Below, piece by piece: positions 38,825 to 61,644 of a stretch of DNA of 64,000 nucleotides (position 1 is its first letter; each line of letters opens with the position of its first letter). The DNA lies in the NCBI GenBank assembly GCA_030688025.1, contig JAUYJL010000009.1, positions 1,503 to 65,502 of the forward strand, in the 5' to 3' direction. Both the position numbers and the translations under genes were made by a program. Under the pieces are notes generated by a model. The model saw nothing but the letters and a program-made list of their open reading frames with translations. It searched no databases and had not been told where the DNA came from. Source of the DNA: Candidatus Peregrinibacteria bacterium. GTDB lineage: Bacteria; Patescibacteriota; Gracilibacteria; UBA1369; LOWO2-01-FULL-3.

Positions 38825-39649
38825 TCAAAGCGGACTTTTAATATTTCGAATACTCGACGCGGAAACCTGAGTATATCTTTGCGTGGTGCGGAGATTTTGA
38901 TGTCCCAAAAGAGTTTGTATGTAACGGATATCGGTGCCATTTTCGAGCAAATGAGTGGCAAAACTATGGCGAAGGCTGTGAAAAGTCGCGTCAGCAAAAA
39001 CGCCAGACTTTAAAAGTGCATTGCTAAAGATTTTTTGCGCAGTACGAGTGGTAAGTCGTCCACCTCGTTCACTTTCAAAAAGGAAATCATTTTTATCTCT
39101 TCCTGCAACAAAATCTATCAAAGGAGAAATCAACTTTTCCGGCAAAATGGTAATTCTGTCTTTATTGCCTTTTGCCTGTATTACGTAAATGATTTTCTCA
39201 GAAATATTCAAATCTTTAACTTTGATTTTTACAACTTCACTAACCCGAAGCCCAGCTCCATAAGCCAAAGAAATCATAAGTCGGTGTTTTAAGTTTGTTA
39301 TGGAATCAATAACTTTCAAAATGTCGTTTTTCGCCAAAACAACAGGAAGTTTCAGGGGTCGACGTGCAAATTTTATATCAATTTTGCAAAAGCATTTCAT
39401 GACATCTCTATAAAAAAACTTAATGGCATTGAGATAAAGATTCACAGTCTCAGGCGCATAATTTTTCAAATGTTTTTGTTTCAAAAAATCTTTAATAATT
39501 TCAACATCGGGAGAAGAAATATCTCTACCGACGAAGTTGAAAAACTCCCTCAAACAAGCCAAATAAGACTTCCTAGTCTGCGGGCTGTAATTTCTGATGA
39601 TGATTTCTCTTTCGGTCTGATTTATGTAAAAAGAATGTTCCATATACAC
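38825..39649 (-). CDS. Integron-integrase-like tyrosine recombinase lacking the IntI-specific additional domain
   Basis: RRPLKLPVVLAKNDI, LAYGAGLRVSEVVKIKVKDL, AKGNKDRITILPEKL, HSLRHSFATHLLENGTDIRYIQTLLGHQNLRTTQRYTQV and a C-terminal IKSPL. It is divergent from the cassette array with the attI-like site about 110 bp upstream. Confidence 0.9.
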   Translation of the reverse strand: MYMEHSFYINQTEREIIIRNYSPQTRKSYLACLREFFNFVGRDISSPDVEIIKDFLKQKHLKNYAPETVNLYLNAIKFFYRDVMKCFCKIDIKFARRPLKLPVVLAKNDILKVIDSITNLKHRLMISLAYGAGLRVSEVVKIKVKDLNISEKIIYVIQAKGNKDRITILPEKLISPLIDFVAGRDKNDFLFESERGGRLTTRTAQKIFSNALLKSGVFADATFHSLRHSFATHLLENGTDIRYIQTLLGHQNLRTTQRYTQVSASSIRNIKSPL

Positions 39650-39756: not shown

Positions 39757-39796
39757 GTTTCTATACGAAAACACTTCGCATAGAAACGAGTTAGCC
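39757..39796 (+). other. attI-like site
   Basis: Imperfect inverted repeat GTTTCTATACGAA-aacac-TTCGCATAGAAAC, followed by GA-GTTAGCC-GAAAT. The GTTAGCC at 39790-39796 supplies the TTAGCC that matches R'' (GGCTAAC) of the first attC. Confidence 0.7.
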
Positions 39797-39846
39797 GAAA
39801 TATCCTTTTATTAAACTCATTATTTAAAATCCTTAACTAAAATGTT

Positions 39847-40362
39847 ATGCACATCAAAAAACGTCCGTTGGTAATTTTTTTATCAATAGTAGCCATCTCT
39901 TTTATTGCTGGGTTGCTATATATGAACAAAGGGGTAGATCCAAACTATTCAATTTCAATTAATGGAAAAAACATAGTTGTTTCTCAGGATAAATGGAAAT
40001 TCGTTGAACCCTTTGAACCAAGTTTATATAGCAAAAATTATAGTGCTATAAATAAAAGAGATGGCCACGAATTTGAGCAGATGATAACAGTCTTTCTACA
40101 AAAAATGACTGACGATAGAAAAATTGGAGAAAAAATTACCAACTCAGAGTATATCGAAGCTTTTGTTGTGCATCCAAATTCAGTTACCGTACAAATCAGA
40201 ATTGATAAAGGTGATTATTGGGTCATGAGTAGAGAAACCTTTGAATCAAAAAATAATTACCCAGATCAAACAGATGTATCTTATTCTGATTTGTTACTGA
40301 ATTTTGAGGATATGCAGAACAGAATCGATAATACAAAATACATTTTAAATAATGAGTTTTAA
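39847..40362 (+). CDS. Cassette 1: membrane-anchored hypothetical protein (171 aa)
   Basis: Single ORF in cassette 39791-40494, with an N-terminal TM helix (LVIFLSIVAISFIAGLLYM). Confidence 0.6.
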   Translation: MHIKKRPLVIFLSIVAISFIAGLLYMNKGVDPNYSISINGKNIVVSQDKWKFVEPFEPSLYSKNYSAINKRDGHEFEQMITVFLQKMTDDRKIGEKITNSEYIEAFVVHPNSVTVQIRIDKGDYWVMSRETFESKNNYPDQTDVSYSDLLLNFEDMQNRIDNTKYILNNEF

Positions 40363-40383
40363 AAAACAATAAAAGGATACATC

Positions 40384-40500
40384 GGCTAACACAGAATATG
40401 CGGTTTCGCTCCCGTTGGTCGCTACACCCATATTTGCCAGCGGTCGCCCTTCGGGCATATTATACCGCTGTCAAACATCGCATATTCTGGGACGTTGTGC
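40384..40500 (+). other. attC 1 (R'' GGCTAAC ... R' GTTGTGC)
   Basis: L'' CAGAATATGCG pairs with L' CGCATATTCTG, and inner TTTGCCAGCGGT pairs with ACCGCTGTCAAA. Spacers are 1 nt after R'' and 4 nt (GGAC) before R'. Confidence 0.85.
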
Positions 40501-41475: not shown

Positions 41476-41552
41476 GCACAACAGCGTGTATGCGGTTCCG
41501 CTACGCTCCACCCATATTGCTTCGCAACATCGCATACACGCAAACGTTAGCC
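41476..41552 (+). other. attC 2 (R'' GCACAAC ... R' GTTAGCC)
   Basis: L'' GCGTGTATGCG pairs with L' CGCATACACGC. There is 1 nt on the R'' side and AAAC on the R' side. Length is 77 bp. Confidence 0.85.
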
Positions 41553-42113: not shown

Positions 42114-42226
42114 GGCTAACACTGCATAACAGGTTCGGCTCTTGCAGAGCCTCACCCAAATTGCGCAGGTGTGAGCCTTCGGCTATTATACACCTGCGCA
42201 ACTTCTGTTATGCAGGAACGTTATAT
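42114..42226 (+). other. attC 3 (R'' GGCTAAC ... R' GTTATAT)
   Basis: L'' CTGCATAACAGG pairs with L' TCTGTTATGCAG, and inner TTGCGCAGGTGT pairs with ACACCTGCGCAA. The R'-side spacer is GAAC. Confidence 0.85.
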
Positions 42227-43204: not shown

Positions 43205-43282
43205 ATATAACAAGGCATATACGGCTACGCTACGCTTCGCCCATATTGCTATCGCAACATCGTATATGCCGAAACGTTAGCC
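43205..43282 (+). other. attC 4 (R'' ATATAAC ... R' GTTAGCC)
   Basis: L'' GGCATATACGG pairs with L' CGTATATGCC. The R'-side spacer is GAAAC. Length is 78 bp. Confidence 0.85.
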
Positions 43283-43665: not shown

Positions 43666-43783
43666 GGCTAACACTGAATGTGCGGTTCGCGGCTTGCAGC
43701 CGCTCTCCCATATTCACTGGCGGTGAATCGCTTTGCGATATATTATACCGCCAGTGAACATCGCACATTCAGAAACGTTAGGC
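43666..43783 (+). other. attC 5 (R'' GGCTAAC ... R' GTTAGGC)
   Basis: L'' CTGAATGTGCG pairs with L' CGCACATTCAG, and inner TTCACTGGCGGT pairs with ACCGCCAGTGAA. The R'-side spacer is AAAC. Confidence 0.85.
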
Positions 43784-44119: not shown

Positions 44120-44245
44120 GCCTAACAATGAATAACTGGTTCACTCCTTCACTCCGTTCAGTCGTTCTCCCAAATTTGGCGGCGGTATGTCGCTCCGCTC
44201 CAAATTTTACCGCCACCACACTTCAGTTATTCATGGACGTTAGCT
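44120..44245 (+). other. attC 6 (R'' GCCTAAC ... R' GTTAGCT)
   Basis: L'' ATGAATAACTGG pairs with L' CAGTTATTCAT, and inner TTTGGCGGCGGT pairs with ACCGCCACCACA (imperfect). The R'-side spacer is GGAC. Confidence 0.85.
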
Positions 44246-44474
44246 GAAATATTCCTTTTCTTTTCTGGGCTATCGCCCAATTGTTTTAAAAAATTTTCAA
44301 ATTTCTTTTTCTTTTTTATAAGGGGAAATATGGAGTTTTCTCCGCTCTGCTACGAAAACACTTGTTTTGTAGAGGGGAATAGCGGTGTTTCCTCCGCTTC
44401 GCTCCAGAAACTCTTTATATATTAAGGGAAAAATACTATACTACCATTAACCCGCCTTTGAACATAAAAACCCT

Positions 44475-49321: not shown

Positions 49322-49324
49322 GAA

Positions 49325-49379
49325 GTTTTCGGTCGGGGCAATTCACCCCTTTAGTTCCCCTCTTGCCCCTCCCTCAAAC
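49325..49379. repeat. Conserved-loop hairpin H1 (degenerate copy)
   Basis: GTTTTCGGTCGGGGCAA - TTCACCCCTTTAGTTCCCCTC - TTGCCCCTCCCTCAAAC, with 13/17 stem pairs. Confidence 0.6.
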
Positions 49380-49390
49380 AAGAAATAGGT

Positions 49391-49445
49391 GTTTTGGGTG
49401 GCGGGCATTCACCCCTTTAATTCCCCTCTGCCCACCACCCAAAAC
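49391..49445. repeat. Conserved-loop hairpin H2
   Basis: GTTTTGGGTGGCGGGCA - TTCACCCCTTTAATTCCCCTC - TGCCCACCACCCAAAAC, with 16/17 stem pairs. Confidence 0.75.
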
Positions 49446-49509
49446 GGAAAAAGAAATTTGAAAATTTTTAAAACAACCGACTATCGACGGAAAAGAAAAG
49501 GAATACATC

Positions 49510-49636
49510 AGCTAACACTGCGTATGCGGTTACGGCTTGCTCCGTACCTCCGCAAGCCTCCACCCATATTTGCCAGTGGTAAGCACTTCGTGCAATTATA
49601 CCACTGGCAAACATCGCATACGCAGGGACGTTATGT
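49510..49636 (+). other. attC 7 (R'' AGCTAAC ... R' GTTATGT)
   Basis: L'' TGCGTATGCG pairs with L' CGCATACGCA, and inner TTTGCCAGTGGT pairs perfectly with ACCACTGGCAAA. The R'-side spacer is GGGAC. Confidence 0.88.
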
Positions 49637-49666
49637 GAAATAGACTTTACTACCTAAGTGCAAAAT

Positions 49667-50437
49667 ATGACAAACGATCAAACTAAAAAATTCTACGATG
49701 AACTATCGGCTGATTATCATTTGATTTTCGGTAATTGGGATAATGCAATAAAAAGACAATCAAAAATTTTAGATAACATTATCCAAAAATATTCAAAAAA
49801 CGAATCAAAAACGTTATTGGATTGTTCTTGCGGGATAGGAACACAAGCCATTGGATTAGCGAATCTTGGATATAAAGTTCATGCAACAGATTTAAGTCCA
49901 AAAGCAATTGTGAGAGCCAGATTAGAAGCAAACAAAAGGGGTGTTTCAATATCTTTCGATGTTGCCGATTTCAAGAAATTAGAAGATCAAGTTGAAGGAA
50001 CTTTTGATATTGTCATTTCTTGTGATAATTCATTACCACATTTATTAACAGACGAAGAATTGCTTTTGGCTGCAAAAAATATTCTTTCTAAAATGAAATC
50101 CAATAGCTTGTTTATCGCAAGCATCAGAGATTATGACCAACTTTTGGAAGACAAACCAATTAGCACTCAACCAAACGTAAAAGATTTTACAAAGGAAAGA
50201 ACAATTTCTTTTCAAGTGTGGGATTGGGATGAAAATAATGTTTATACTGTTAATCATTTTACTCTGAAAGGAATTAATGAAAAATTTGATACGTTTTTGA
50301 GAACAACTAAATATAGAGCATATAAACGCGATGAAATGTCTAAAATTTTTAAAGAAGCAGGATTTATCGAAATCAAATGGTTAATGCCGAATGAATCAGA
50401 ATACTATCAGCCGATAATAATTGCGTTGAAACCGTAA
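49667..50437 (+). CDS. Cassette 8: class I SAM-dependent methyltransferase (small-molecule type)
   Basis: LLDCSCGIGTQAIGLANLGYKVHATDLS (motif I and the post-I acidic residue). The start is set at ATG 49667 (MTNDQ) rather than GTG 49658. Confidence 0.8.
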   Translation: MTNDQTKKFYDELSADYHLIFGNWDNAIKRQSKILDNIIQKYSKNESKTLLDCSCGIGTQAIGLANLGYKVHATDLSPKAIVRARLEANKRGVSISFDVADFKKLEDQVEGTFDIVISCDNSLPHLLTDEELLLAAKNILSKMKSNSLFIASIRDYDQLLEDKPISTQPNVKDFTKERTISFQVWDWDENNVYTVNHFTLKGINEKFDTFLRTTKYRAYKRDEMSKIFKEAGFIEIKWLMPNESEYYQPIIIALKP

Positions 50438-50449
50438 AGTCTACATCAC

Positions 50450-50591
50450 ATAACACGGTATATGGGGTTCAGAAAATTTCACTCAAAAGATTTAAAAGGA
50501 ATGTGAAATTTTCTTCTCCCAAATTTGCCTCACACTATTGATAAAAATTAAGGAGTTCGGCAAACTTCCCATATACCGAAACGTTGTGCGA
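50450..50591 (+). other. attC 8 (R'' ACATAAC ... R' GTTGTGC)
   Basis: L'' CGGTATATGGG pairs with L' CCCATATACCG. An inner hairpin is GAAAATTTCAC...GTGAAATTTTC. The R'-side spacer is AAAC. Length is 142 bp. Confidence 0.85.
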
Positions 50592-50761
50592 AATATTTTT
50601 CAATATTTTTTCTTTAATAAGGAATTTTTGTTGAAGAATTTAAAAAAGGATGGAATTTTTATTTTAATGAGGGGGATATAATGTATTTTTTGCTCCGTTC
50701 CTCCGCAAAAAATGGATTTAATATTTAATGGAAAATCAGTATAATACCACTGTAAAACACT

Positions 50762-51598
50762 ATGGCTAAAAAAACTCAATCAAAAAGATTAACGAATCAG
50801 CATAAAAAATCTCAAGGTGTAGTCGGTATATTCTGTAACGAAGCAAAGTTACATGATAAAACGGTTTGTAAAATTTCATACCTTGTAATTGAACAACTTA
50901 AAAAGGAACTTCCTCAGTTATCTTTTAGATATAGAACGTGTATAAAAAAGGAAGAAATAAACAAAGCGTTAAAGAAAATTGATCCAGAATTGGGGCAAAC
51001 CCTTTTTGTGCCAAATTCAAGTATTATTCCAGATGGTGGTATAATTGAAGTAAAAGATGATAGTGGTAATTGGAGAGTAGTACTTGTAACAGAAGCTAAA
51101 CATCAAGGAAAAGACATTGAAAATATACAAATAGGAAATCTAGTTGGTAAAAATAACAATCAAGACTTAATGGCTGCTGGCAATGCCATAGAAAGATCGC
51201 ATAAAAACATATCAGAAATTGCCAACTTTATGCTATATGAATCCCATTTCCCCTATATCTTATTCCTGGAAGGATCAAATTTTCTTACTAAAACTATTTC
51301 AATTAAAAGACCTGACGGAAGAGTGGTTACTCTTAATTATAACTCAGGCATGTTAAATAGATTGGATAGATTAACTTGTGCAAATTATGGAATGCCAATT
51401 AACACTAATTTATGTAAAAATAAATTTGTTAAACATAAAGATAAAACGATTATGCTTCAAGCAGCTTCAATTTTTACACAAGGAAATGGAGGAAAGTGGG
51501 ATGTAAAAGAAATGTTTGATATTATGATTGAAATTTCAAAAACCTCTCTTCAAGTATTAGGAAGTGAAATATTTAAACAAATAACCAAGCGAAAATAA
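50762..51598 (+). CDS. Cassette 9: EcoRI-family Type II restriction endonuclease
   Basis: Near-colinear similarity, from memory, to R.EcoRI. This includes PQLSFRYR, IIPDGGIIEVKDD, WRVVLVTEAKHQGKDI (catalytic D...E-A-K), QDLMAAGNAIERSHKNISEIANFM, FLEGSNFLT, YGMPIN and IMLQAASI. Length is 278 aa versus 277 aa for EcoRI. Confidence 0.88.
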   Translation: MAKKTQSKRLTNQHKKSQGVVGIFCNEAKLHDKTVCKISYLVIEQLKKELPQLSFRYRTCIKKEEINKALKKIDPELGQTLFVPNSSIIPDGGIIEVKDDSGNWRVVLVTEAKHQGKDIENIQIGNLVGKNNNQDLMAAGNAIERSHKNISEIANFMLYESHFPYILFLEGSNFLTKTISIKRPDGRVVTLNYNSGMLNRLDRLTCANYGMPINTNLCKNKFVKHKDKTIMLQAASIFTQGNGGKWDVKEMFDIMIEISKTSLQVLGSEIFKQITKRK

Positions 51599-51627
51599 GA
51601 GATTTATTCATTTAACATAATCTGATA

Positions 51628-52683
51628 ATGGCAAGAAATGCAACAAACAAATTATTGCAAAAAGCTAAGGAATCAAAGAGTGATGAGTTTTACACTCAAC
51701 TTTCAGATATAGAAAGTGAATTGCAACACTACAAAGGTCATTTTAAGGACAAAGTGGTTTTTTGTAATTGCGATGACCCTAAAATTAGCAACTTCTTTAA
51801 CTATTTTGCTTCAAACTTCAAAGAGTTGGGATTAAAAAAAATAATAGCTTCTTGTCATAGAAAACAAGAAAGAAATTTATTTAATACTAAAGAATTTGAA
51901 AGTGGTTATTTTTATGAATATTCAGGTGCTCCGGGAGAAAAAATAAACCCAAGTTCAAATGACATGATTCATTTTAAAGGAGATGGCGATTTTCGCAGCA
52001 CTGAAAGCATTGAACTATTAAAACAATCCGATATTATTGTTACTAATCCACCATTTTCGTTATTCAGGGATTTCGTAGGTCAATTGGTAAAATATGATAA
52101 AAAATTTTTGATAATAGGCAACGTTAATGCTATTACCTATAAAGAAATTTTTAAATTAATTAAGAAAAACAAGGCGTGGCTAGGAATAAATCTAGGTAGA
52201 GGTATTTCAGGTTTTATTGTACCAGAACATTACGAGCTTTACGGAACGGAAGCTCGTATCGATAGTCTTGGAAATAGAATAATCTCCCCAAATAACTGTT
52301 TATGGCTAACTAATTTAGACACATCCAAAAGGCACGAAGACATTATTCTTACAAAGAGATATTTTGGAAACGAAATTGATTATCCCCGTTACGATAACTA
52401 TGATGGAATTAATATAGATAAAACAAAAGATATTCCTTTAGATTATGCAGGCGTTATGGGAGTACCAATAACCTTTTTACATAAATACAATTCAGAGCAG
52501 TTTGAAATCATTAAATTTAGAAAAGGAAATGATGAGAAAGATTTGTCAGTAAACGGGAAATGTCCTTATTTTAGAATCTTAATCAGAAATAAACGCATAC
52601 AGAAGACTGGCAGTTGTCATGCAAGAATTGCAACAGATCAATGTCAGGAATATAAAATGATACCAATACAAACTTTATTATGA
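51628..52683 (+). CDS. Cassette 9: EcoRI-family N6-adenine DNA methyltransferase
   Basis: MARNATNKLL..SKSDEFYTQ, CNCDDP, GDGDFRS, IIVTNPPFSLF (motif IV NPPF), YDKKFLIIGNVN, GFIVPEHYELYGTEARID, NNCLWLTNLD, GVMGVPITFLHK and CPYFRILI all follow M.EcoRI as I remember it. There is an extra ~25-aa tail. Confidence 0.88.
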   Translation: MARNATNKLLQKAKESKSDEFYTQLSDIESELQHYKGHFKDKVVFCNCDDPKISNFFNYFASNFKELGLKKIIASCHRKQERNLFNTKEFESGYFYEYSGAPGEKINPSSNDMIHFKGDGDFRSTESIELLKQSDIIVTNPPFSLFRDFVGQLVKYDKKFLIIGNVNAITYKEIFKLIKKNKAWLGINLGRGISGFIVPEHYELYGTEARIDSLGNRIISPNNCLWLTNLDTSKRHEDIILTKRYFGNEIDYPRYDNYDGINIDKTKDIPLDYAGVMGVPITFLHKYNSEQFEIIKFRKGNDEKDLSVNGKCPYFRILIRNKRIQKTGSCHARIATDQCQEYKMIPIQTLL

Positions 52684-54176
52684 TAAAGACAATAACCATC
52701 CAAAATTTTAGAGGTATAAGGGAACTAAAAGATTTTGAACTCAAAAATCTTTCATTGCTTGTTGGTGAAAATGGAACAAGTAAAACCTCTATTTTAGAAG
52801 CGATAAATTTTTGTCTTTCTCCTTATTTTATATCTGGAAGAATTAAACATACAGATTTTTACAAAGGTGAAGATATTGAGATAAAAATTATTTTGGAATT
52901 TGATGAAAATTTCAAAGTCTTTTTGCCTGATGGCTATACCAAACAAGAGGTTGAGTGCAATAAGGTTTGTTTAGAAATAAAAAAAAGAGATAGGGCGACT
53001 CCCAAAAAGGCATTTTCGGACATTGTTGTTGTTTCTCATTATGTTTTACCAAGCAAAGAAAAAGATAATGAAAATGGTTGGGAGATAACACGAGGAACGG
53101 GATCAAAATTTAAATTTGATGAAAGACGGTTGTCTTTTCCTTTGGAGTCAGAAGGGCTACCAAAAAGTTTTTATTTTCCAAAAAACCGAGAAAAACAATT
53201 GCAGAGAGGCTTTAATTCTTCTATTTCTTCAGTTTTTGATGACTTTAATTGGAGATTCAATAAAGAAGTAAGAAAAATTGAAACAGAAGAAAATTTTAGT
53301 GGAGAAAAATTTACATCTCAAAAAAATAATTTTGAATCAAGTATTTTAGAAAAAATTGATGAACAATCACAACAAAAGACATTCCAGACACTAAACGAAA
53401 AACTGGAAAAAGTAGGTTTACCAAAAGCTGATCTTTCACTAATTGATTGCAATGCGCCTTTTGACAATGCTTTTCTTTCTCAAAAATTAGAATGTTTAGA
53501 CTTGCCTATATCTCAACTTGGGTCAGGTGTTGAAATGGTTGTTTCTTTATTGTTTTTAGAAACAATGGCAGAAATTTCAAAAGAAAATATCTTGATTTTA
53601 ATTGATGAACCAGAGCTACACCTACACCCAGATTTACAAAATAATTTTATTGATCACATAGTATCAATTTCTGAAAAAAATCAATTTCTATTTTCTACTC
53701 ACTCCCCACTTTTCGTTAAACAAACATTAAATAATGAAAATGGAAAAATTCAAATTCATTGTTTGGAAAAAGAAAATGGAGAAGTAAAAATTTTAGAATT
53801 AGAAAAAAGAGTTTTGCCGTATGTTTCAGCTAACGAAGTAAATTTTATTGCTTTTGGGTTAGCAACAGAAGAATATCACAATGAACTTTATAATGAGATT
53901 GAAATAAATTTTTGGAATGATCCAGATAATGATTTTAAAACATTGAAACAAAACGGAAGTTATGACAATAATGACTGTCGTCAAATTATTTTTGATAACG
54001 AATTTTTCTCAAAATTTAAACAAGAACAAATAGATAGTCCTTTTAGGACTACTCAAAATAAAGTAACAATCCACACCTACATTAGAAATAGAATTCATCA
54101 CTCTAAAGAAAATGGAGAAAGTCCAACAACACAAGAATTAAAACAATCCATAGAGAAAATGCGAGGATTTCTTTAA
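52680..54176 (+). CDS. Cassette 9: ABC/OLD-like (AAA_15/21-type) ATPase with a non-TOPRIM C-terminal domain
   Basis: Walker A GENGTSKTS, Walker B ILILIDEPELHLHP and H-loop FSTHSP. The ~115-aa C-terminus has no DxD/TOPRIM motif but contains RNRIHH (an Rx4H pattern). The start codon overlaps the methyltransferase stop (ATGA). Confidence 0.75.
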   Translation: MIKTITIQNFRGIRELKDFELKNLSLLVGENGTSKTSILEAINFCLSPYFISGRIKHTDFYKGEDIEIKIILEFDENFKVFLPDGYTKQEVECNKVCLEIKKRDRATPKKAFSDIVVVSHYVLPSKEKDNENGWEITRGTGSKFKFDERRLSFPLESEGLPKSFYFPKNREKQLQRGFNSSISSVFDDFNWRFNKEVRKIETEENFSGEKFTSQKNNFESSILEKIDEQSQQKTFQTLNEKLEKVGLPKADLSLIDCNAPFDNAFLSQKLECLDLPISQLGSGVEMVVSLLFLETMAEISKENILILIDEPELHLHPDLQNNFIDHIVSISEKNQFLFSTHSPLFVKQTLNNENGKIQIHCLEKENGEVKILELEKRVLPYVSANEVNFIAFGLATEEYHNELYNEIEINFWNDPDNDFKTLKQNGSYDNNDCRQIIFDNEFFSKFKQEQIDSPFRTTQNKVTIHTYIRNRIHHSKENGESPTTQELKQSIEKMRGFL

Positions 54177-54182
54177 TAAGGT

Positions 54183-54231
54183 GTTTTTCTTTTTCCAATT
54201 CACCCCTAACCCCTCTTGGAAAAAGAAAAAC
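54183..54231. repeat. Conserved-loop hairpin H3
   Basis: GTTTTTCTTTTTCCAA - TTCACCCCTAACCCCTC - TTGGAAAAAGAAAAAC, a perfect 16-bp stem. Confidence 0.75.
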
Positions 54232-54308
54232 GAAAAATAAAAATTCCAAATAGAAATAAAATTCTTCAACAAAAGAATAAGGAATGAAAAAATATTGAAA
54301 AATACATC

Positions 54309-54435
54309 GCACAACAACTCATATCTGGCTCAAGAAATTGACACATTAATATTTCAAAGGAAAGTCAATTTCTTTCGACCCAAATTTTTGCTTCACTACG
54401 TTTTGCAAAAACTTCAGATATGAGTAACGTTAGCC
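54309..54435 (+). other. attC 9 (R'' GCACAAC ... R' GTTAGCC)
   Basis: L'' CTCATATCTGG pairs with L' CAGATATGAG. An inner hairpin is GAAATTGAC...GTCAATTTC. The R'-side spacer is TAAC. Confidence 0.85.
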
Positions 54436-54662
54436 GAAATACATTTTTACTATTCCCTTTTTGTCGCTCCGCTTTTCGGACTTTTAATAAGGAGGGGCGA
54501 ATTGATTCTTTATTTTTAGAGGGGGGGGCTGTCTGCCTTTGGCAGCCAGTAAGGTATTTTCTTGCTCCCTTCGGTCGCTACGAAAAATTTAGAATTATTT
54601 TAGAAATATTTAATAATTGCATGATATAATCACTACGAAATTTTAAATAAATCAGAATAAAT

Positions 54663-56255
54663 ATGAACACAACAGAACAAAACGAATTATTAAGTATTCA
54701 AGAAGCAAGCACATGGGCTAGCTCATTTTTGAAGCGCGTCGTTACAGAAAGCAACATTTCATATCTAATTCAGTATGGCAGAGTTAGAAAAATTGGAGAA
54801 AATGGCACAACTCAAATAATAAAAGCAGATTTACTTAGATATTACGAAAAAAGTCGCCCTAGTCGTGAAATATCATGGAAAAAAACGCTTGGAGATGACT
54901 TAAACTGGTCTTTATCTTTTGAACAATATAGAGAATCTGAAACCACAAAGCATGTTCATCGGTTACATCCATACAAAGGAAAATACATTCCTCAACTTGT
55001 TGAGTATTTTTTAGACGATCACACGGATAATTTTAAGAAACAAACTTATTTTAAAAAGGGTGACATCATTCTTGATCCATTTTGTGGAAGTGGAACAACG
55101 CTTGTGCAAGCAAATGAATTGGGTATGCACTCAATCGGGATAGATATTTCCGCCTTCAATTCCTTAATTTCAAACATTAAAATTGGAAAACATGACTTTG
55201 AAGAACTCACCCTGGTAATTAAGCAAATTACTAACAACTTGGAAAAAATTTTAAAGGACGCACACGCAATAGATTTTGAATCAGAACTATTAAAAGAGCT
55301 AAATCAATTCAATTCAAAAAATTTCCCCTCTCCGGAATTTAAGTACAAAATACGCCAAGGACAGGTTGATGAAAGAAAATTTGGAAGCGAAAAAGAAAAA
55401 GAATTTCTGAAAATTTACGATACATTGGTCAAAAAGTATGGAATTAAATTAAAACAACAAAAAAATGAAACATTCTTAGATAAATGGTATCTACAAGCAA
55501 TCAGAGATGAAATAAATTTCATGTTTGAGCAAATTAAGCAAATCAAAAATCCAGACATCAAAAAAGTAATAAGTGTTATTTTAAGCCGTACTATCAGATC
55601 TTGCCGTGCAACAACCCATTCAGATTTAGCAACGCTCAAGGAGCCACAAATAACAACTTATTATTGCAAAAAGCACGGGAAAATGTGCAAACCTCTTTTT
55701 TCAATTTTGAGCTGGTGGAAGCGATATGCTCAAGACACAATGTATAGGTTTAAACAATTCGAAAAATTACGAACTGATACAAAACAAATTTGCTTAACAG
55801 GTGATTCAAGAGAAATAGATATTTTTGGAGAACTAGATAACCGTTATCCCGATTTTGCTAAAATCGTAAAAACTCAAAAGATTAAAGGTATTTTTTCTTC
55901 ACCTCCTTATGTTGGATTGATTGATTATCACGAACAACATGCCTACGCCTATGATCTCTTCGGATTTAAGCGCAAAGACGAATCTGAAATAGGCCCGCTT
56001 TTTCGAGGACAAGGATTAGAAGCAAGAAAAAGCTATATTGAAGGGATTTCATCTGTACTGCTAAATTGCAAAAAATTTCTAGCAGATGATTTCTCCATAT
56101 TTTTAGTAGCCAATGATAAATGGGGTATGTATCCTGAAATTGCTAAAAAAGCAGGACTAAAAATTGTTGAAGAATTTAAAAGACCCGTTTTAAACCGTAC
56201 CGAAAAAGACAAAGGAGCGTATTCAGAGATAATTTTTCACTTAAAAAATAATTAA
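54663..56255 (+). CDS. Cassette 10: DNA methyltransferase (N4-C/N6-A amino-methyltransferase, SPPY motif, alpha-like order)
   Basis: ILDPFCGSGTTLVQANELGMHSIGIDIS (motif I) lies about 270 aa before IFSSPPYVGLIDY (motif IV). The N-terminal segment LSIQEASTWAS... looks like a small HTH. Confidence 0.82.
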   Translation: MNTTEQNELLSIQEASTWASSFLKRVVTESNISYLIQYGRVRKIGENGTTQIIKADLLRYYEKSRPSREISWKKTLGDDLNWSLSFEQYRESETTKHVHRLHPYKGKYIPQLVEYFLDDHTDNFKKQTYFKKGDIILDPFCGSGTTLVQANELGMHSIGIDISAFNSLISNIKIGKHDFEELTLVIKQITNNLEKILKDAHAIDFESELLKELNQFNSKNFPSPEFKYKIRQGQVDERKFGSEKEKEFLKIYDTLVKKYGIKLKQQKNETFLDKWYLQAIRDEINFMFEQIKQIKNPDIKKVISVILSRTIRSCRATTHSDLATLKEPQITTYYCKKHGKMCKPLFSILSWWKRYAQDTMYRFKQFEKLRTDTKQICLTGDSREIDIFGELDNRYPDFAKIVKTQKIKGIFSSPPYVGLIDYHEQHAYAYDLFGFKRKDESEIGPLFRGQGLEARKSYIEGISSVLLNCKKFLADDFSIFLVANDKWGMYPEIAKKAGLKIVEEFKRPVLNRTEKDKGAYSEIIFHLKNN

Positions 56256-56256
56256 T

Positions 56257-57054
56257 ATGGCACTATCAAAAGATTTACAACAGAAGGTTTATGAATTTCT
56301 AAAGGGGAAAATCCTTAAAAAAATTGATGAATACAACTTGAGCGATGAAGACTCATCAAAACCTTTTCAATATGCTCTTTTTACAAAAAAGGGTTACTTG
56401 GCTAAAGGATTTATTCATGGATGTGAAACAGCACTTGGAAATTGGCACGAAACCATAGCGAAAATTATTGCCACTGAAAATTTTGCAACTGCAAATAAAT
56501 TACAAGGACAAAACAAATTAAAAGGTAAAATCACAAGAGAGGCACAAAGAACATCTGAAAATATTTTAAGTGATCTTGATAGCGTTAAGAGAGAACCAAA
56601 TCACAAGTCAGAGTCAGAAGAAATTTTTAATGCTAGCCAAAACCTCGAACAAACAGAGGACAGAATACAAACTGTTGATCTCTACCTAGAAACAAAAGAC
56701 GGTGAAGAAATTTATTTTGAAATAAAGGGACCTAAGCCAAATAAAAACGAAATGAGAGCAGCAAAAAGAGATTTGCTAGAAATATATGCAATGAGATCAG
56801 CGGAAGGCAAGAAAGTAAAAATTTATTTAGGCATGTACTACAACCCATATTATCCCGAAGAGTACCAAAGATGGACATGTATAAAATTCTTTGATAAAGG
56901 TAATGACTTTCTTATTGGCAAAGACTTTTGGGACTTTTTAGGCGGAAACGGAGCTTATGAGGAATTAATTGATATTTATGAAAAAGTCGGAGAAAAAATA
57001 AGACCAGTGCTAGATCAAAAGTTCAAGGACATTGCAAAAAATCAAGAAGAATAA
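56257..57054 (+). CDS. Cassette 10: PD-(D/E)xK Type II restriction endonuclease (family uncertain, possibly TdeIII-like)
   Basis: VDLYLETKDGEEIYFEIKGPKPN fits D-Xn-E-X-K. The gene starts 2 nt after the methyltransferase stop. The family name is only a recollection. Confidence 0.6.
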   Translation: MALSKDLQQKVYEFLKGKILKKIDEYNLSDEDSSKPFQYALFTKKGYLAKGFIHGCETALGNWHETIAKIIATENFATANKLQGQNKLKGKITREAQRTSENILSDLDSVKREPNHKSESEEIFNASQNLEQTEDRIQTVDLYLETKDGEEIYFEIKGPKPNKNEMRAAKRDLLEIYAMRSAEGKKVKIYLGMYYNPYYPEEYQRWTCIKFFDKGNDFLIGKDFWDFLGGNGAYEELIDIYEKVGEKIRPVLDQKFKDIAKNQEE

Positions 57055-57057
57055 AGT

Positions 57058-57106
57058 GTTTTGGCTCGGGCAATTCACCCCCGGCCCCTCTTGCCCTCGC
57101 CAAAAC
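57058..57106. repeat. Conserved-loop hairpin H4
   Basis: GTTTTGGCTCGGGCAA - TTCACCCCCGGCCCCTC - TTGCCCTCGCCAAAAC, with 14/16 stem pairs. Confidence 0.7.
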
Positions 57107-57238
57107 AGAATCAATTCGCCCCTTATAAATAAGTGAAAAGCGGTCGTGACATCGGGAATAGTAAAAATGTACTTCGTTCGGTCGCTACGCTCCCTCCGAC
57201 CACGCTGCGCTCTCGCTCCACTGCGTTACGCTCGGGTC

Positions 57239-57371
57239 GGCTAACACAGCATAACAGGTTCGGGGCTCGGCTCGCCCCTCACCCAAATTGCTTGTTCGCT
57301 TAGGCGGTGCACTCCGTGCTATTATACCGCCACGCTCACTTCGCAACTTCTGTTATGCTGGAACGTTAGCT
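57239..57371 (+). other. attC 10 (R'' GGCTAAC ... R' GTTAGCT)
   Basis: L'' CAGCATAACAGG pairs with L' TCTGTTATGCTG. The R'-side spacer is GAAC. It is closely related to attC 3. Confidence 0.85.
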
Positions 57372-61084: not shown

Positions 61085-61271
61085 CTTGCGGTGGCGGGGG
61101 TAGTTGAGGCAAACGCGACCACAGGAAAATGACAAACTGTGCTCGCGATGATATAGTTTGTGGTGAAGAAGCTGAGAGACAATTAGCGGAGGAGCCAAGG
61201 TCGTCCTAAACCTTCCGCTAACCCCATCCTTTACTATGCAGGTTATTCCAGCCCATATTCAATTCCATCTT

Positions 61272-61432
61272 CCACGGATTACGCCTCATCCTCTCCACCC
61301 TTGCTCCACGGATTACGCCTCATCCACTCCACCCTTGCTCCACGGATTACGCCTCGTCCACTCCACCCTTGCTCCACGGATTACACCTCATCCACTCCAC
61401 CTTTACTCCAAGGATTACATCTTAGAATTCTC
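61272..61432. repeat. 34-bp tandem repeat (about 4.7 units) derived from the 3' end of yidD
   Basis: Units lie at 61272, 61306, 61340 and 61374, with a degenerate unit at 61408. The consensus is CCACGGATTACGCCTCATCCACTCCACCCTTGCT. The reverse complement encodes ...NPWSKGGVDE(A/V)*, the YidD C-terminus plus stop. Confidence 0.9.
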
Positions 61433-61644
61433 CAAACAGTTTTCAAGCTTCCCAAAACCAGCCCATGCTTTTTCAAGGCAACACGAGAATATTCCGAACA
61501 ACTCGGCTTAAACTTACAATACCCCTGCGGGAAAAACACCTTAAGTAAGCCATGATCAGGCGACAACGTCTTTTGATAAAGACCAACGAAAAAAGCCGCC
61601 GTATTTCTCGGCAGCTTCCATATATATAGTAAAACCTTCTTCAT
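61381..61644 (-). CDS. yidD: Membrane protein insertion efficiency factor YidD
   Basis: CKFKPSCSEYSRVALKKHG...RILRCNPWSKGGVD is the YidD signature. Length is 87 aa. Confidence 0.9.
   Translation of the reverse strand: MKKVLLYIWKLPRNTAAFFVGLYQKTLSPDHGLLKVFFPQGYCKFKPSCSEYSRVALKKHGLVLGSLKTVWRILRCNPWSKGGVDEV

Follow-up and report, generated by a model that had tools for sequence, protein, structure and literature searches.

The DNA analysed here (64,000 nucleotides; hereafter the window) contains, at 39.8-57.4 kb, an integron-like array of ten cassettes beside an Xer-like tyrosine recombinase, and the large cassettes 7, 9 and 10 carry hairpins at their 3' ends, here called M, raising the question of what such hairpins do at this position. 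In these cassettes M forms the part of the 3' non-coding arm that lies nearest to the cargo and folds on itself, and most likely it helps single-stranded cassette DNA to fold for recombination rather than regulating the R-M genes. The features concerned are as follows:

38825..39649, - strand: 274-aa Xer-like tyrosine recombinase belonging to the array, its gene pointing away from the cassettes
39760..39802, + strand: attI-like site (TTCGCATAGAAACGA|GTTAGCCGAAAT) at the array start, conserved in 10 related loci
49325..49379, + strand: hairpin M1 of cassette 7, first of a tandem pair
49391..49445, + strand: hairpin M2 of cassette 7 (covariance model, 84.9 bits)
49446..49636, + strand: trailer spacer and attC-like site of cassette 7 (R'' AAC at 49514, R' GTT at 49630)
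54183..54231, + strand: hairpin M3 of cassette 9 (covariance model, 70.3 bits)
54232..54435, + strand: trailer spacer and attC-like site of cassette 9 (R'' at 54313, R' at 54429)
57058..57106, + strand: hairpin M4 of cassette 10 (covariance model, 58.9 bits)
57107..57371, + strand: trailer spacer and attC-like site of cassette 10 (R'' at 57243, R' at 57365), the final site of the array

The loop motif TTCACCCC-N(2-9)-CCCCTC was found four times in the 64 kb, on the + strand only, and not once in 100 shuffled sequences, so that the hairpin family with a conserved loop proposed in a preliminary description of this DNA is real. A covariance model of the kind that description had called for, trained on 58 relatives and run over the window, recovered precisely these four copies, all in the array, with E-values of 1e-8 to 1e-15; the only other window match at E<0.01 was the reverse strand of one copy. 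As had been claimed, the model detected no M in the seven small cassettes or in the 46 kb outside the array. The four copies share the loop TTCACCCC-N3-7-CCCCTC (its spacer had been given as 3-6 nt) on stems that differ yet remain complementary, and of the ends reported for the family, GTTTT and AAAAC, the latter is to be corrected to CAAAC in M1. In M1 the stem contains two tandem U.C/C.U mismatches on the + strand, equivalent to tandem G.A on the - strand, and its 'CGGTCGGGGCAA' type is again first in the tandem pairs of L021, L027, L030, L064, L069 and L115. M2 has a 17-bp stem, which as first quoted carries one C.A mismatch on the + strand (G.T on the - strand), and the loop TTCACCCCTTTAATTCCCCTC. 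M3, whose extent is corrected above, has an A/T-rich 16-bp stem with no mismatch and the loop TTCACCCCTAACCCCTC; a conserved AATAAGG directly upstream contains the stop codon of the ORF at 52680..54176, and hairpin and flanks are identical in L010, L014, L017, L020, L029, L041 and L048. M4 has a UC/UC internal loop in its stem (GA/GA on the - strand) and the loop TTCACCCCCGGCCCCTC. Compared with shuffled sequences, three of the four copies fold strongly (z = -3.4 to -4.3), whereas the + strand fold of M1 is weak (z = -0.5) because of its tandem mismatches.

The stem covariation noted earlier was borne out in the 58 sequences, in which 91.3% of the stem cells are paired compared with 72.8% after shuffling (0 of 500 shuffles reached the observed value), with double-sided changes at 11 of the 17 stem pairs; 113 distinct arm pairs were counted among the M copies. 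This speaks for selection on the stem structure. The loop sequence, too, is taken to be under selection: metagenome hairpins gathered by their flanks only had the exact loop in 63 of 73 cases, 1-3 substitutions in 8 and an unrelated loop in 2. More than 230 copies are present in MAGs and metagenomes, mainly of Patescibacteria, and the genes upstream of M in other genomes span 87 Pfam families (98 upstream proteins), showing that the association with R-M genes in the window is incidental. An attC-like palindrome lies downstream of M, at a median distance of 91 nt, in 69 of 112 cases as scored with a crude detector (6 of 123 in the upstream control), and the orientation of M is always that of the array. 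Since neither the literature nor Rfam yielded a match to M, and the literature searched describes neither M nor the mirrored leader box considered below, M is apparently a widespread, undescribed module of mobile cassettes in uncultivated bacteria, where it follows the last gene and precedes the recombination site.

The preliminary description had also reported G-boxes complementary to the M loop in the leaders of the same cassettes. Reading of the sequence verified four of these boxes, and the first lies at 44320-44329, one base from where it had been placed. The leaders are:

44239..44414, + strand: leader of cassette 7, inverted copy of the trailer at 49322-49520 (alignment score 113), with G-boxes at 44320-44329 and 44371-44379 mirroring M2 and M1; it also contains two small hairpins whose loops are CGCT-rich
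50583..50715, + strand: leader of cassette 9, inverted copy of the trailer at 54232-54320 starting from R' GTT, with a G-box at 50669-50675 and a leader hairpin at 50684-50712
54429..54590, + strand: leader of cassette 10, inverted copy of the trailer at 57107-57250, with G-boxes at 54492-54497 and 54519-54528 plus leader hairpins

In all 10 window cassettes the leader is an inverted copy of the cassette's own trailer, starting from the R'/R'' boxes. In the large cassettes this repeat extends for 85-150 nt, and its two arms take in the leader G-box and the M loop, respectively, which are complementary over 6-9 nt. The trend toward longer repeats in bigger cassettes is clear in the window, the set in which it could be measured reliably. 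Median leader/trailer alignment scores were 53 within a cassette, 25 with the adjacent cassette and 22 for random pairs. Leaders identified through the inverted 3' flank alone contained RGGGG in 26 of 27 cases, compared with 17 of 540 background windows, and the bases adjoining the G and C tracts covary within cassettes (p = 0.009). Thus the suggestion that the hairpins are relics of a mobile unit came close to the truth: hairpin and G-box are halves of the cassette's own long inverted repeat.

Several observations point to the bottom strand. At non-Watson-Crick stem positions, A:C outnumbers G:T by 37 to 10 and T:C/C:T outnumbers A:G by 61 to 10; mutation bias could contribute to the A:C excess. 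With a neutral loop and DNA parameters, imperfect stems are stabler as the bottom strand in 61 cases and as the top strand in 18 (p = 2e-7), or 31 versus 5 when counted by arm type. The attC sites lean the same way: the bottom strand gives the better fold in 9 of the 10 window sites and in 62 of the 65 from related loci, and in classical integrons it is this strand whose attC fold is recombinogenic. Mismatches in the outer leader/trailer stem show a weak strand bias when one conserved position is left out.

We tentatively favour, giving it nearly even weight, the reading that M is an accessory ssDNA fold which stabilises or positions the recombination substrate, whether it clamps the structure, nucleates it or binds a protein. 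M would act in bottom-strand single-stranded DNA. When a cassette becomes single-stranded, as an excised circle or as part of an array that is being replicated or transferred by conjugation or transformation, its leader and trailer would zip together with attC at the tip, and M would stand as a separate hairpin at the base of the long stem, its G-rich loop beside the C-rich box of the leader arm. Predicted folds of circular-junction constructs show this arrangement, with attC at the tip of the long stem, M at its base and the leader box unpaired beside M. Two options may be considered: a) the M loop would pair with the leader box, clamping the structure by a kissing contact or nucleating the zipper, or b) the loop would be a fixed site to which the recombinase or a host protein binds; with either, the recombination substrate would be stabilised or positioned. 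Such a fold may matter most where the cargo measures several kilobases and the recombinase lacks the IntI domain that reads extrahelical bases. A need for pairing only would permit lineage-specific loop/box pairs, but the invariance of the tracts suggests that a third partner is involved; a protein or nucleic-acid recognition site, close to the protein or RNA site proposed earlier, remains the best description of the invariant loop.

It is unlikely, in our judgement, that M instead works in sense-strand RNA, ending or protecting the cassette mRNA while its C-rich loop pairs with the 5' leader G-box and closes or regulates the transcript. The loop/G-box complementarity would suit such a role, as would the position of M, since in 108 of 135 cases it follows the end of an ORF on the same strand at a distance of no more than about 15 nt, the gap being exactly 3 nt in 42. 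A Shine-Dalgarno-like TAAGGAG is conserved between stop codon and M; it is not explained by the inverted repeat and hints at a sense RNA function. As reported earlier, the hairpins are not classical terminators, inspection of the sequence showing no T-run after the window copies, and a U-tract is absent 3' of M on both strands; as the host shows no canonical terminator enrichment anywhere, this absence is not decisive. However, the sense-strand stems are systematically poorer, containing C.A and tandem U.C at positions that are G.T and G.A on the antisense strand, which disfavours the regulatory RNA first considered. Intact copies also adjoin oppositely oriented genes, their orientation tracking attC and not the neighbouring gene, so that M is not simply a 3' UTR element. 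The repeat, moreover, begins at the recombination boxes in all cassettes, which points to DNA, and the best promoter-like sites of the window leaders lie downstream of the G-box (weak evidence), so the box may be outside the cargo mRNA.

Quite improbable is a different task for M in bottom-strand ssDNA, i.e. priming or second-strand synthesis, nicking as at ssoA-type/HUH Rep origins, or formation of a G-quadruplex. Origin hairpins of rolling-circle replicons and ssoA-type single-strand origins, which act in single-stranded DNA, are recognisable by covarying stems that carry an invariant loop. M shares this signature, and its preference for the bottom strand would suit such a task. The bottom-strand loop, GAGGGG-N3-7-GGGGTGAA, has two G4 tracts separated by a variable linker of 3-7 nt, and tandem copies would provide four; the conserved bases beside the tracts (AGA..., ...TGAA) would, however, be superfluous in a quadruplex. 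Excision of cassettes from ssDNA by a single strand exchange (PMC12614218) would also fit such a task. Against it, no Rep or HUH gene was found among the 25 most frequent of the 87 Pfam families or the eight window proteins scanned, small cassettes of the same arrays lack M although they would need the same step, and the mirrored leader box is left unexplained. Unlike such origins, M is also tied to a recombination site.

About equally improbable is that M and the leader box are functionless remnants of a founding palindromic element or its TIRs, kept by descent and hitch-hiking with the spread of cassettes: TIR-like inverted repeats do surround the cargo, discrete stem types with their flanks and attC are common to distant MAGs, and chimeric hairpins exist whose 5' and 3' arms belong to different types (L084, L093, L081, L065, L086, L046), but stem types keep their complementarity through double changes, the loop stays unchanged although arms and flanks have diverged, mismatches are strand-biased, the repeat runs on from the R boxes and is not bounded by target duplications, and the arms are kept in M but lost in the leader copy, indicating that they are maintained locally.

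The array resembles integrons in that i) cassettes of one orientation lie beside a divergent tyrosine recombinase and an attI-like site, ii) each cassette ends, like attC (59-be), in an imperfect palindrome with ...AAC (R''), GTT... (R') and inner L boxes, iii) each cassette begins with bases complementary to its own R'', iv) the bottom strand folds better, and v) genes for defence, R-M and toxins abound in the cargo. In contrast to integrons, the recombinase has no IntI-specific additional domain, complementarity continues 12-140 nt past the R boxes (0-5 nt in three classical class 1 cassettes used as a control), and the large cassettes add M and its mirrored leader box. The best scores of the recombinase were with XerA/XerC-type models and structures, and the 3' half of the array sites (e.g. 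ACATCGCATAC-N9-TTATGTGAAAT) resembles E. coli dif, GGTGCGCATAA-TGTATA-TTATGTTAAAT. Xer/dif recombination, pdif modules included, also offers accessory sequences for comparison: cer/psi combine a core site with about 180 bp of flanking accessory DNA controlling the reaction; for the array, no accessory proteins are known. Unlike Xer/dif sites, those of the array are long palindromes in cassette arrays, and their strand bias suggests folded single strands and not duplex sites. M shares with REP/BIME elements and intrinsic terminators the form of a stable intergenic hairpin just 3' of a stop codon, but terminators need the U-tract that M lacks, and the REP-like nature first considered is not supported, since REP conserves the stem and is scattered genome-wide whereas M conserves the loop and is confined to cassettes. 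In CopA/CopT and RNAI/RNAII kissing, a structured loop likewise offers a short G/C-rich sequence to its complement and nucleates a longer duplex; these are RNA-RNA pairs with pair-specific loops, while M is probably ssDNA with one loop in all lineages. Kissing-loop recognition serves as our working analogy for M and the leader box.

The loop motif TTCACCCC-N-CCCCTC occurs four times in the window, always on the + strand, against a chance expectation of none. The four hairpins (M), which lie at the 3' ends of the large cassettes of an integron-like array, the first two in tandem in cassette 7, were each detected by both the loop pattern and a covariance model:

49325-49379, + strand, hairpin M1
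49391-49445, + strand, hairpin M2
54183-54231, + strand, hairpin M3
57058-57106, + strand, hairpin M4

Three of the four copies folded strongly better than shuffled sequence (z -3.4 to -4.3), whereas two tandem U.C/C.U mismatches weaken M1 on the + strand, and the covariance model, built from relatives, matched these four copies only in the 64 kb. The hairpin family proposed in the preliminary description is thus real, and the account given of it stood overall, with small corrections to the end of copy 1, the spacer length and the coordinates of copy 3. The G-boxes reported in the leaders (the 5' non-coding arms of the cassettes) were also recovered, each within one base of where it had been placed. 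M is carried by the three large cassettes (7, 9 and 10) and is absent from the seven small ones. In the trailer (3' arm) of small cassette 1, AATAATGAGTTTT-AA-AAAACAATAAAAGG (40346-40377) corresponds to the flanks of M minus stem and loop (model E = 0.12), a match that could be coincidental in A+T-rich DNA or could represent the module without its hairpin.

The region from 39.8 to 57.4 kb consists of ten cassettes in one orientation, each closed, as in integrons, by an imperfect palindrome with ...AAC and GTT... boxes, R''(RYYYAAC)/L'' plus L'/R'(GTTRRRY). A tyrosine recombinase gene with divergent transcription adjoins the array, and an attI-like insertion site is present at the array start beside this gene:

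about 39765-39802, attI-like site, with GTTAGCC at about 39791
40388-40494, attC-like site 1
41480-41546, attC-like site 2
42118-42220, attC-like site 3
43209-43276, attC-like site 4
43670-43777, attC-like site 5
44124-44239, attC-like site 6
49514-49630, attC-like site 7
50452-50583, attC-like site 8
54313-54429, attC-like site 9
57243-57365, attC-like site 10

A shared attI, TTCGCATA-AAA-GGA|GTTA, was readable beside the array in 10 of 12 related loci from other genomes. A CCCCTC box beside the attI of the window, considered as an accessory site of the recombinase, was rejected as chance, being absent from the ten readable related attI regions. All ten window sites were recovered by a crude palindrome detector, which gave about 0.4 false hits per kb; in 69 of 112 cases, the start of an attC-like site lay between 20 and 300 nt downstream of M, at a median of 91 nt, compared with 6 of 123 on the upstream side. 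M type, spacer and attC type travel together behind unrelated genes.

Several smaller features recur at these sites. Just outside the R boxes, all ten cassette boundaries have a conserved two-base mismatch (e.g. 49509-49513 versus 44246-44250; trailer ACATC, leader GAAAT; top strand A.A and C.A, bottom strand T.T and G.T), which might act as extrahelical bases do in classical attC. The central unpaired part of every attC contains CNCCCA(A/T)ATTT (e.g. 57282-57292, 49567-49577 and 54406-54416), which reads AAAT(A/T)TGGGNG on the bottom strand; since TCACCC/GGGTGA is common to this motif and the M loop, a single factor might read both. A second covarying hairpin, GTTTTC-loop-GAAAAC, was observed in the leaders (44334-44359, 44385-44414, 50684-50712 and 54551-54588) and in many of the related loci; its loops are pyrimidine-rich and CGCT-rich (TCCGCTCCGCTAC), and similar loops occur within attC and just 5' of R''.

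A pattern scan of one genome per species yielded at least 118 loci, about a dozen being expected by chance (our own estimate). Among the matches listed, the hosts were mostly Patescibacteria/CPR MAGs, with further labels of Omnitrophota, Gammaproteobacteria, Ignavibacteria, Bdellovibrionales, Polaribacter, Altarchaeum and Methanosarcinales. The flanks of M are also conserved, with AATAAGGA upstream and AAAAC plus an A-rich run (e.g. AAAAAAATCAAATTT) downstream, and the stems are of many types (type d is GGGCTTCGGGCA), each still complementary. In 58 sequences gathered via the loop, 91% of the stem cells were paired, versus 73% after shuffling, and both sides had changed at 11 of 17 pairs, bearing out the compensatory covariation of the preliminary description. 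When hairpins were collected again from metagenomes by their flanks alone, 63 of 73 had the exact loop, 8 had 1-3 substitutions and 2 had an unrelated loop; the invariance of the loop is therefore real.

Chimeric hairpins, with the 5' arm of one type, the 3' arm of another and the conserved loop as the joint, were seen in related loci (locus:position L084:3076, L093:2007, L081:73, L065:3635, L086:4184, L046:1171 and L106:561, with L081 and L065 counted on the reverse strand of the locus), as expected if two M copies of an array had recombined or been joined by a deletion. Most copies have a conserved AATAAGGAG 5' of M (e.g. 54175-54183 in the window), and a near-perfect Shine-Dalgarno-like TAAGGAG overlaps the stop codon upstream of M, for which the inverted repeat with the leader does not account.

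An open reading frame on the same strand ends at M in 108 of 135 cases, 42 of them with the TAA of AATAAGGA, 3 nt 5' of GTTTT, as stop codon. The 98 upstream proteins examined belong to 87 Pfam families, with a predominance of defence-type functions (N6_Mtase, GmrSD, type I S subunits, Fic, AbiEii-like AAA_21, AAA_15, KilA-N and Schlafen, for example), and M is therefore no feature of restriction-modification (R-M) genes, to which it had been tied. In the window, the cargo of cassette 7 is a type III mod/res pair; cassette 9 (50762-54176) carries genes for an endonuclease and a methylase closely related to those of the EcoRI system (Pfam E 1e-146 and 7e-130) as well as a third ORF of 498 aa (52680-54176), and cassette 10 a methyltransferase gene and a second ORF. 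A few cassettes have a neighbouring gene on the opposite strand, a clear methyltransferase in locus L043 and further cases in L055, L117 and L091; the orientation of M was kept in all four and M was intact in three. No locus with hairpins on both strands was found.

In every cassette of the window, the cassette's own leader and trailer are inverted repeats of each other when the former is read from the R' GTT and the latter back from R''. The repeat length is about 20-70 nt for the small cassettes, and cassettes 7, 9 and 10 reach about 85-150 nt; in other loci, where length was set against cassette size, anchored extension halted at the first indel and lenient local alignment over-called in A+T-rich coding DNA. 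The relation extends to these other loci, where median leader/trailer scores were 53 within a cassette, 25 across attC to the next cassette and 22 for random pairs, and in three class 1 cassettes used as controls (aadA2, cmlA1 and aadA1) the repeat goes 0-5 nt past the R box. The palindrome around the recombination site spans up to about 400 nt, one end reaching the stop codon and the other most of the way to the start codon. The leader copy of the repeat lacks the hairpin arms, and the two leader G-boxes of cassette 7, complementary to the M loop, align with the loops of the tandem M1 and M2 in mirrored order. The leaders share the motif AAATTTGATTTTTTT-N10-(A)GAGGGG-(N)ATAAGGTG, after which comes a small hairpin whose loop is CGCT-rich. 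When leaders elsewhere were located by the inverted 3' flank of M alone, RGGGG was present within the next 45 nt in 26 of 27, versus 17 of 540 background windows; the mirroring of M by the G-boxes thus holds in the window and beyond, loops and boxes aligning as halves of the cassette's inverted repeat. Bases that flank the G and C tracts show covariation inside cassettes (p = 0.009). M is a conserved module, selected for both structure and loop sequence, and lies in the 3' arm of a long cassette palindrome centred on attC.

The recombinase ORF (38825-39649, - strand) matches the Pfam families Phage_integrase and SAM_4, and its homologues in 12 related loci, with the same arrangement, share 37-56% identity with it. 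The best family model was XerA_Arch, of the archaeal XerA type (213 bits, cut-off 220), whereas the integron-integrase model TIGR02249 scored 187.8 bits (cut-off 265) with the match split in two. The IntI-specific additional domain, located around patch III in the statement of PMC9668308 that cites Messier and Roy (2001), is regarded as defining for integron integrases (PMC9668308). This domain was not found in the window recombinase, which is about 43 residues short: in the alignment to the Vibrio IntI4 structure (VchIntIA, 2a3v), IntI4 residues 183-244 (62 residues) correspond to 19 residues here. The twelve homologues gave no sign of an insertion, their tblastn alignments being at most 7 columns longer than the stretch of query covered. 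By its sequence, the array recombinase is Xer-like and not a canonical integron integrase; the array behaves as an integron, yet misses the defining IntI domain, and tools based on this domain would presumably report such arrays as attC clusters without integrase.

At Xer/dif-type sites, a recombinase of the Xer family acts on an 11-6/8-11 core flanked by accessory DNA, and E. coli dif reads GGTGCGCATAA-TGTATA-TTATGTTAAAT. The L'-spacer-R' half-sites of the window extend to a conserved ...GAAAT (49606-49641, the 3' halves of all attC sites, and attI at 39765-39802). The half-site ACATCGCATAC-N9-TTATGTGAAAT resembles dif, which suggests 11-bp Xer-type binding arms. The similarity of the core to dif was judged by eye, and an accessory role of the trailer is putative.

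The non-Watson-Crick positions of M are asymmetric, with A:C versus G:T at 37 to 10 and T:C/C:T versus A:G at 61 to 10; on the bottom strand, opposite to the + strand of the array, the same positions become G.T wobbles and tandem G.A pairs. In a comparison of 80 distinct imperfect stems, all given a GAAA loop and arms of equal length, the bottom strand was the stabler in 61 and the top in 18 under DNA parameters, and in 58 and 15, respectively, under RNA parameters (p about 2e-7 for each); grouped by arm type, 31 favoured the bottom and 5 the top. In integrons, the folded bottom strand of attC is what recombines. Computed folds likewise predict the attC-like sites to be stabler as bottom strand, in 9 of 10 cases within the window and in 62 of 65 within related loci, as well as circular-junction constructs of four cassettes, by 3-10 kcal/mol. 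In the latter, attC is the tip of a long leader/trailer stem, M a separate basal hairpin and the leader box unpaired beside it. A wobble bias in the outer leader/trailer stem (86 versus 47) was not used, about 30 of the 86 coming from one conserved position.

We consider it plausible, with somewhat less than even confidence, that M has an accessory role, on the single-stranded bottom strand, in folding or synapsis. In the excised circle, a leader zipped to its trailer would lengthen the attC stem; in the array, such zipping would join the two boundaries of a cassette, and the M loop and the complementary leader box could clamp or nucleate the long stem or bind a common protein. Since cassettes can be excised from linear ssDNA in a single strand exchange (PMC12614218), a single-stranded intermediate is plausible, the more so in organisms believed to rely on DNA uptake. 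However, the tracts are completely invariant where simple pairing would permit covariation, and the Shine-Dalgarno-like TAAGGAG is left unaccounted for. That M is instead a 3' hairpin of the sense RNA with 5'-3' pairing seems unlikely. M also resembles rolling-circle and ssoA origins in having an invariant loop on a variable stem; the families listed for the 98 upstream proteins and the 8 window proteins include no Rep/HUH family, and a role as a priming, nicking or quadruplex element on ssDNA is improbable. It is quite improbable, too, that M is a relic without function, the loop being invariant in more than 200 copies from many lineages.

Other readings were considered. An intrinsic terminator is incompatible with the absence of a U-tract, M being followed by AAAAC and an A-rich run on the + strand and by TCCTTATT on the - strand, in agreement with the earlier view that the hairpins are not classical terminators; the terminator scan did not pick up the full hairpins, its sole call (49396-49414, inside M2) pairing a stem arm with the loop, and in this A+T-rich DNA promoter and terminator scans gave the same counts as shuffled sequence. 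The REP-like role once considered, like a BIME, is not supported, since the 46 kb of window sequence beyond the array hold no copy, copies are tied to attC, stems vary and the loop is constant; no RAYT (IS200-like) transposase was among the Pfam families listed for the upstream and window proteins. As in MITE/TIR transposons, inverted repeats flank the cassette cargo, but they are continuous with the R'/R'' boxes, no target-site duplications were seen, and every copy is located in a cassette array, with one exception, a lone decayed cassette in locus L035. A small ORF inside M was excluded by the different frames that the start-like codons of different stem types give the conserved loop, and a DNA-uptake sequence by confinement of the motif to cassettes.

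Integrons are a major route of gene capture, and the present cassette family, common among uncultivated bacteria, bears on how attC sites get joined to genes and how distant sites find each other on single-stranded DNA. If M and its mirrored box do aid substrate folding or synapsis, they would be the first described case of an accessory DNA element in cassette recombination and would show a way for an Xer-like enzyme to run an integron-like system. It is conceivable, although rather doubtful, that the arrays are a gene-capture system in their own right, standing between Xer/dif and the classical integrons and found across Patescibacteria and other uncultivated lineages, in which an Xer-like recombinase lacking the IntI domain would act on very long palindromic sites and the inverted-repeat arms of each cassette would zip its two boundaries in ssDNA, with M locking or nucleating the fold. 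The invariant, telomere-like G-rich M loop might then act by kissing, by forming a quadruplex or through a dedicated protein, and the sharp joining of unrelated genes to the same module at the stop codon would offer a handle on how cassettes are made. The covariance model of M (R1) and the leader motif are practical markers for such arrays in MAGs.

Our literature search found no prior description of M with its leader box, of attC palindromes extending far past the R boxes, or of integrons in Patescibacteria/CPR. The trailers had no BLAST match among annotated plasmids and phages, and IMG/VR gave only 3 pattern matches; within these collections M is therefore neither a phage nor a plasmid element. 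In Rfam searches, one tRNA alone passed the gathering threshold in the window, and a permissive scan of the array gave weak, chance-like matches, none corresponding to the hairpin family; one overlapped a hairpin (alpha_tmRNA, 54177-54264, - strand, 12.5 bits versus a gathering threshold of 50, E = 3.2). The lone cassette-like unit outside any array, L035:3300-6760 on Polaribacter chromosome OY729423.1, starts with GTTAGAC and has a degenerate leader without G-box, a 1037-aa ORF and an intact M, with no attC downstream. Outside the array of the window, a 34-nt unit (TCCACGGATTACGCCTCATCCACTCCACCCTTGC) is repeated five times head-to-tail at 61237-61440.
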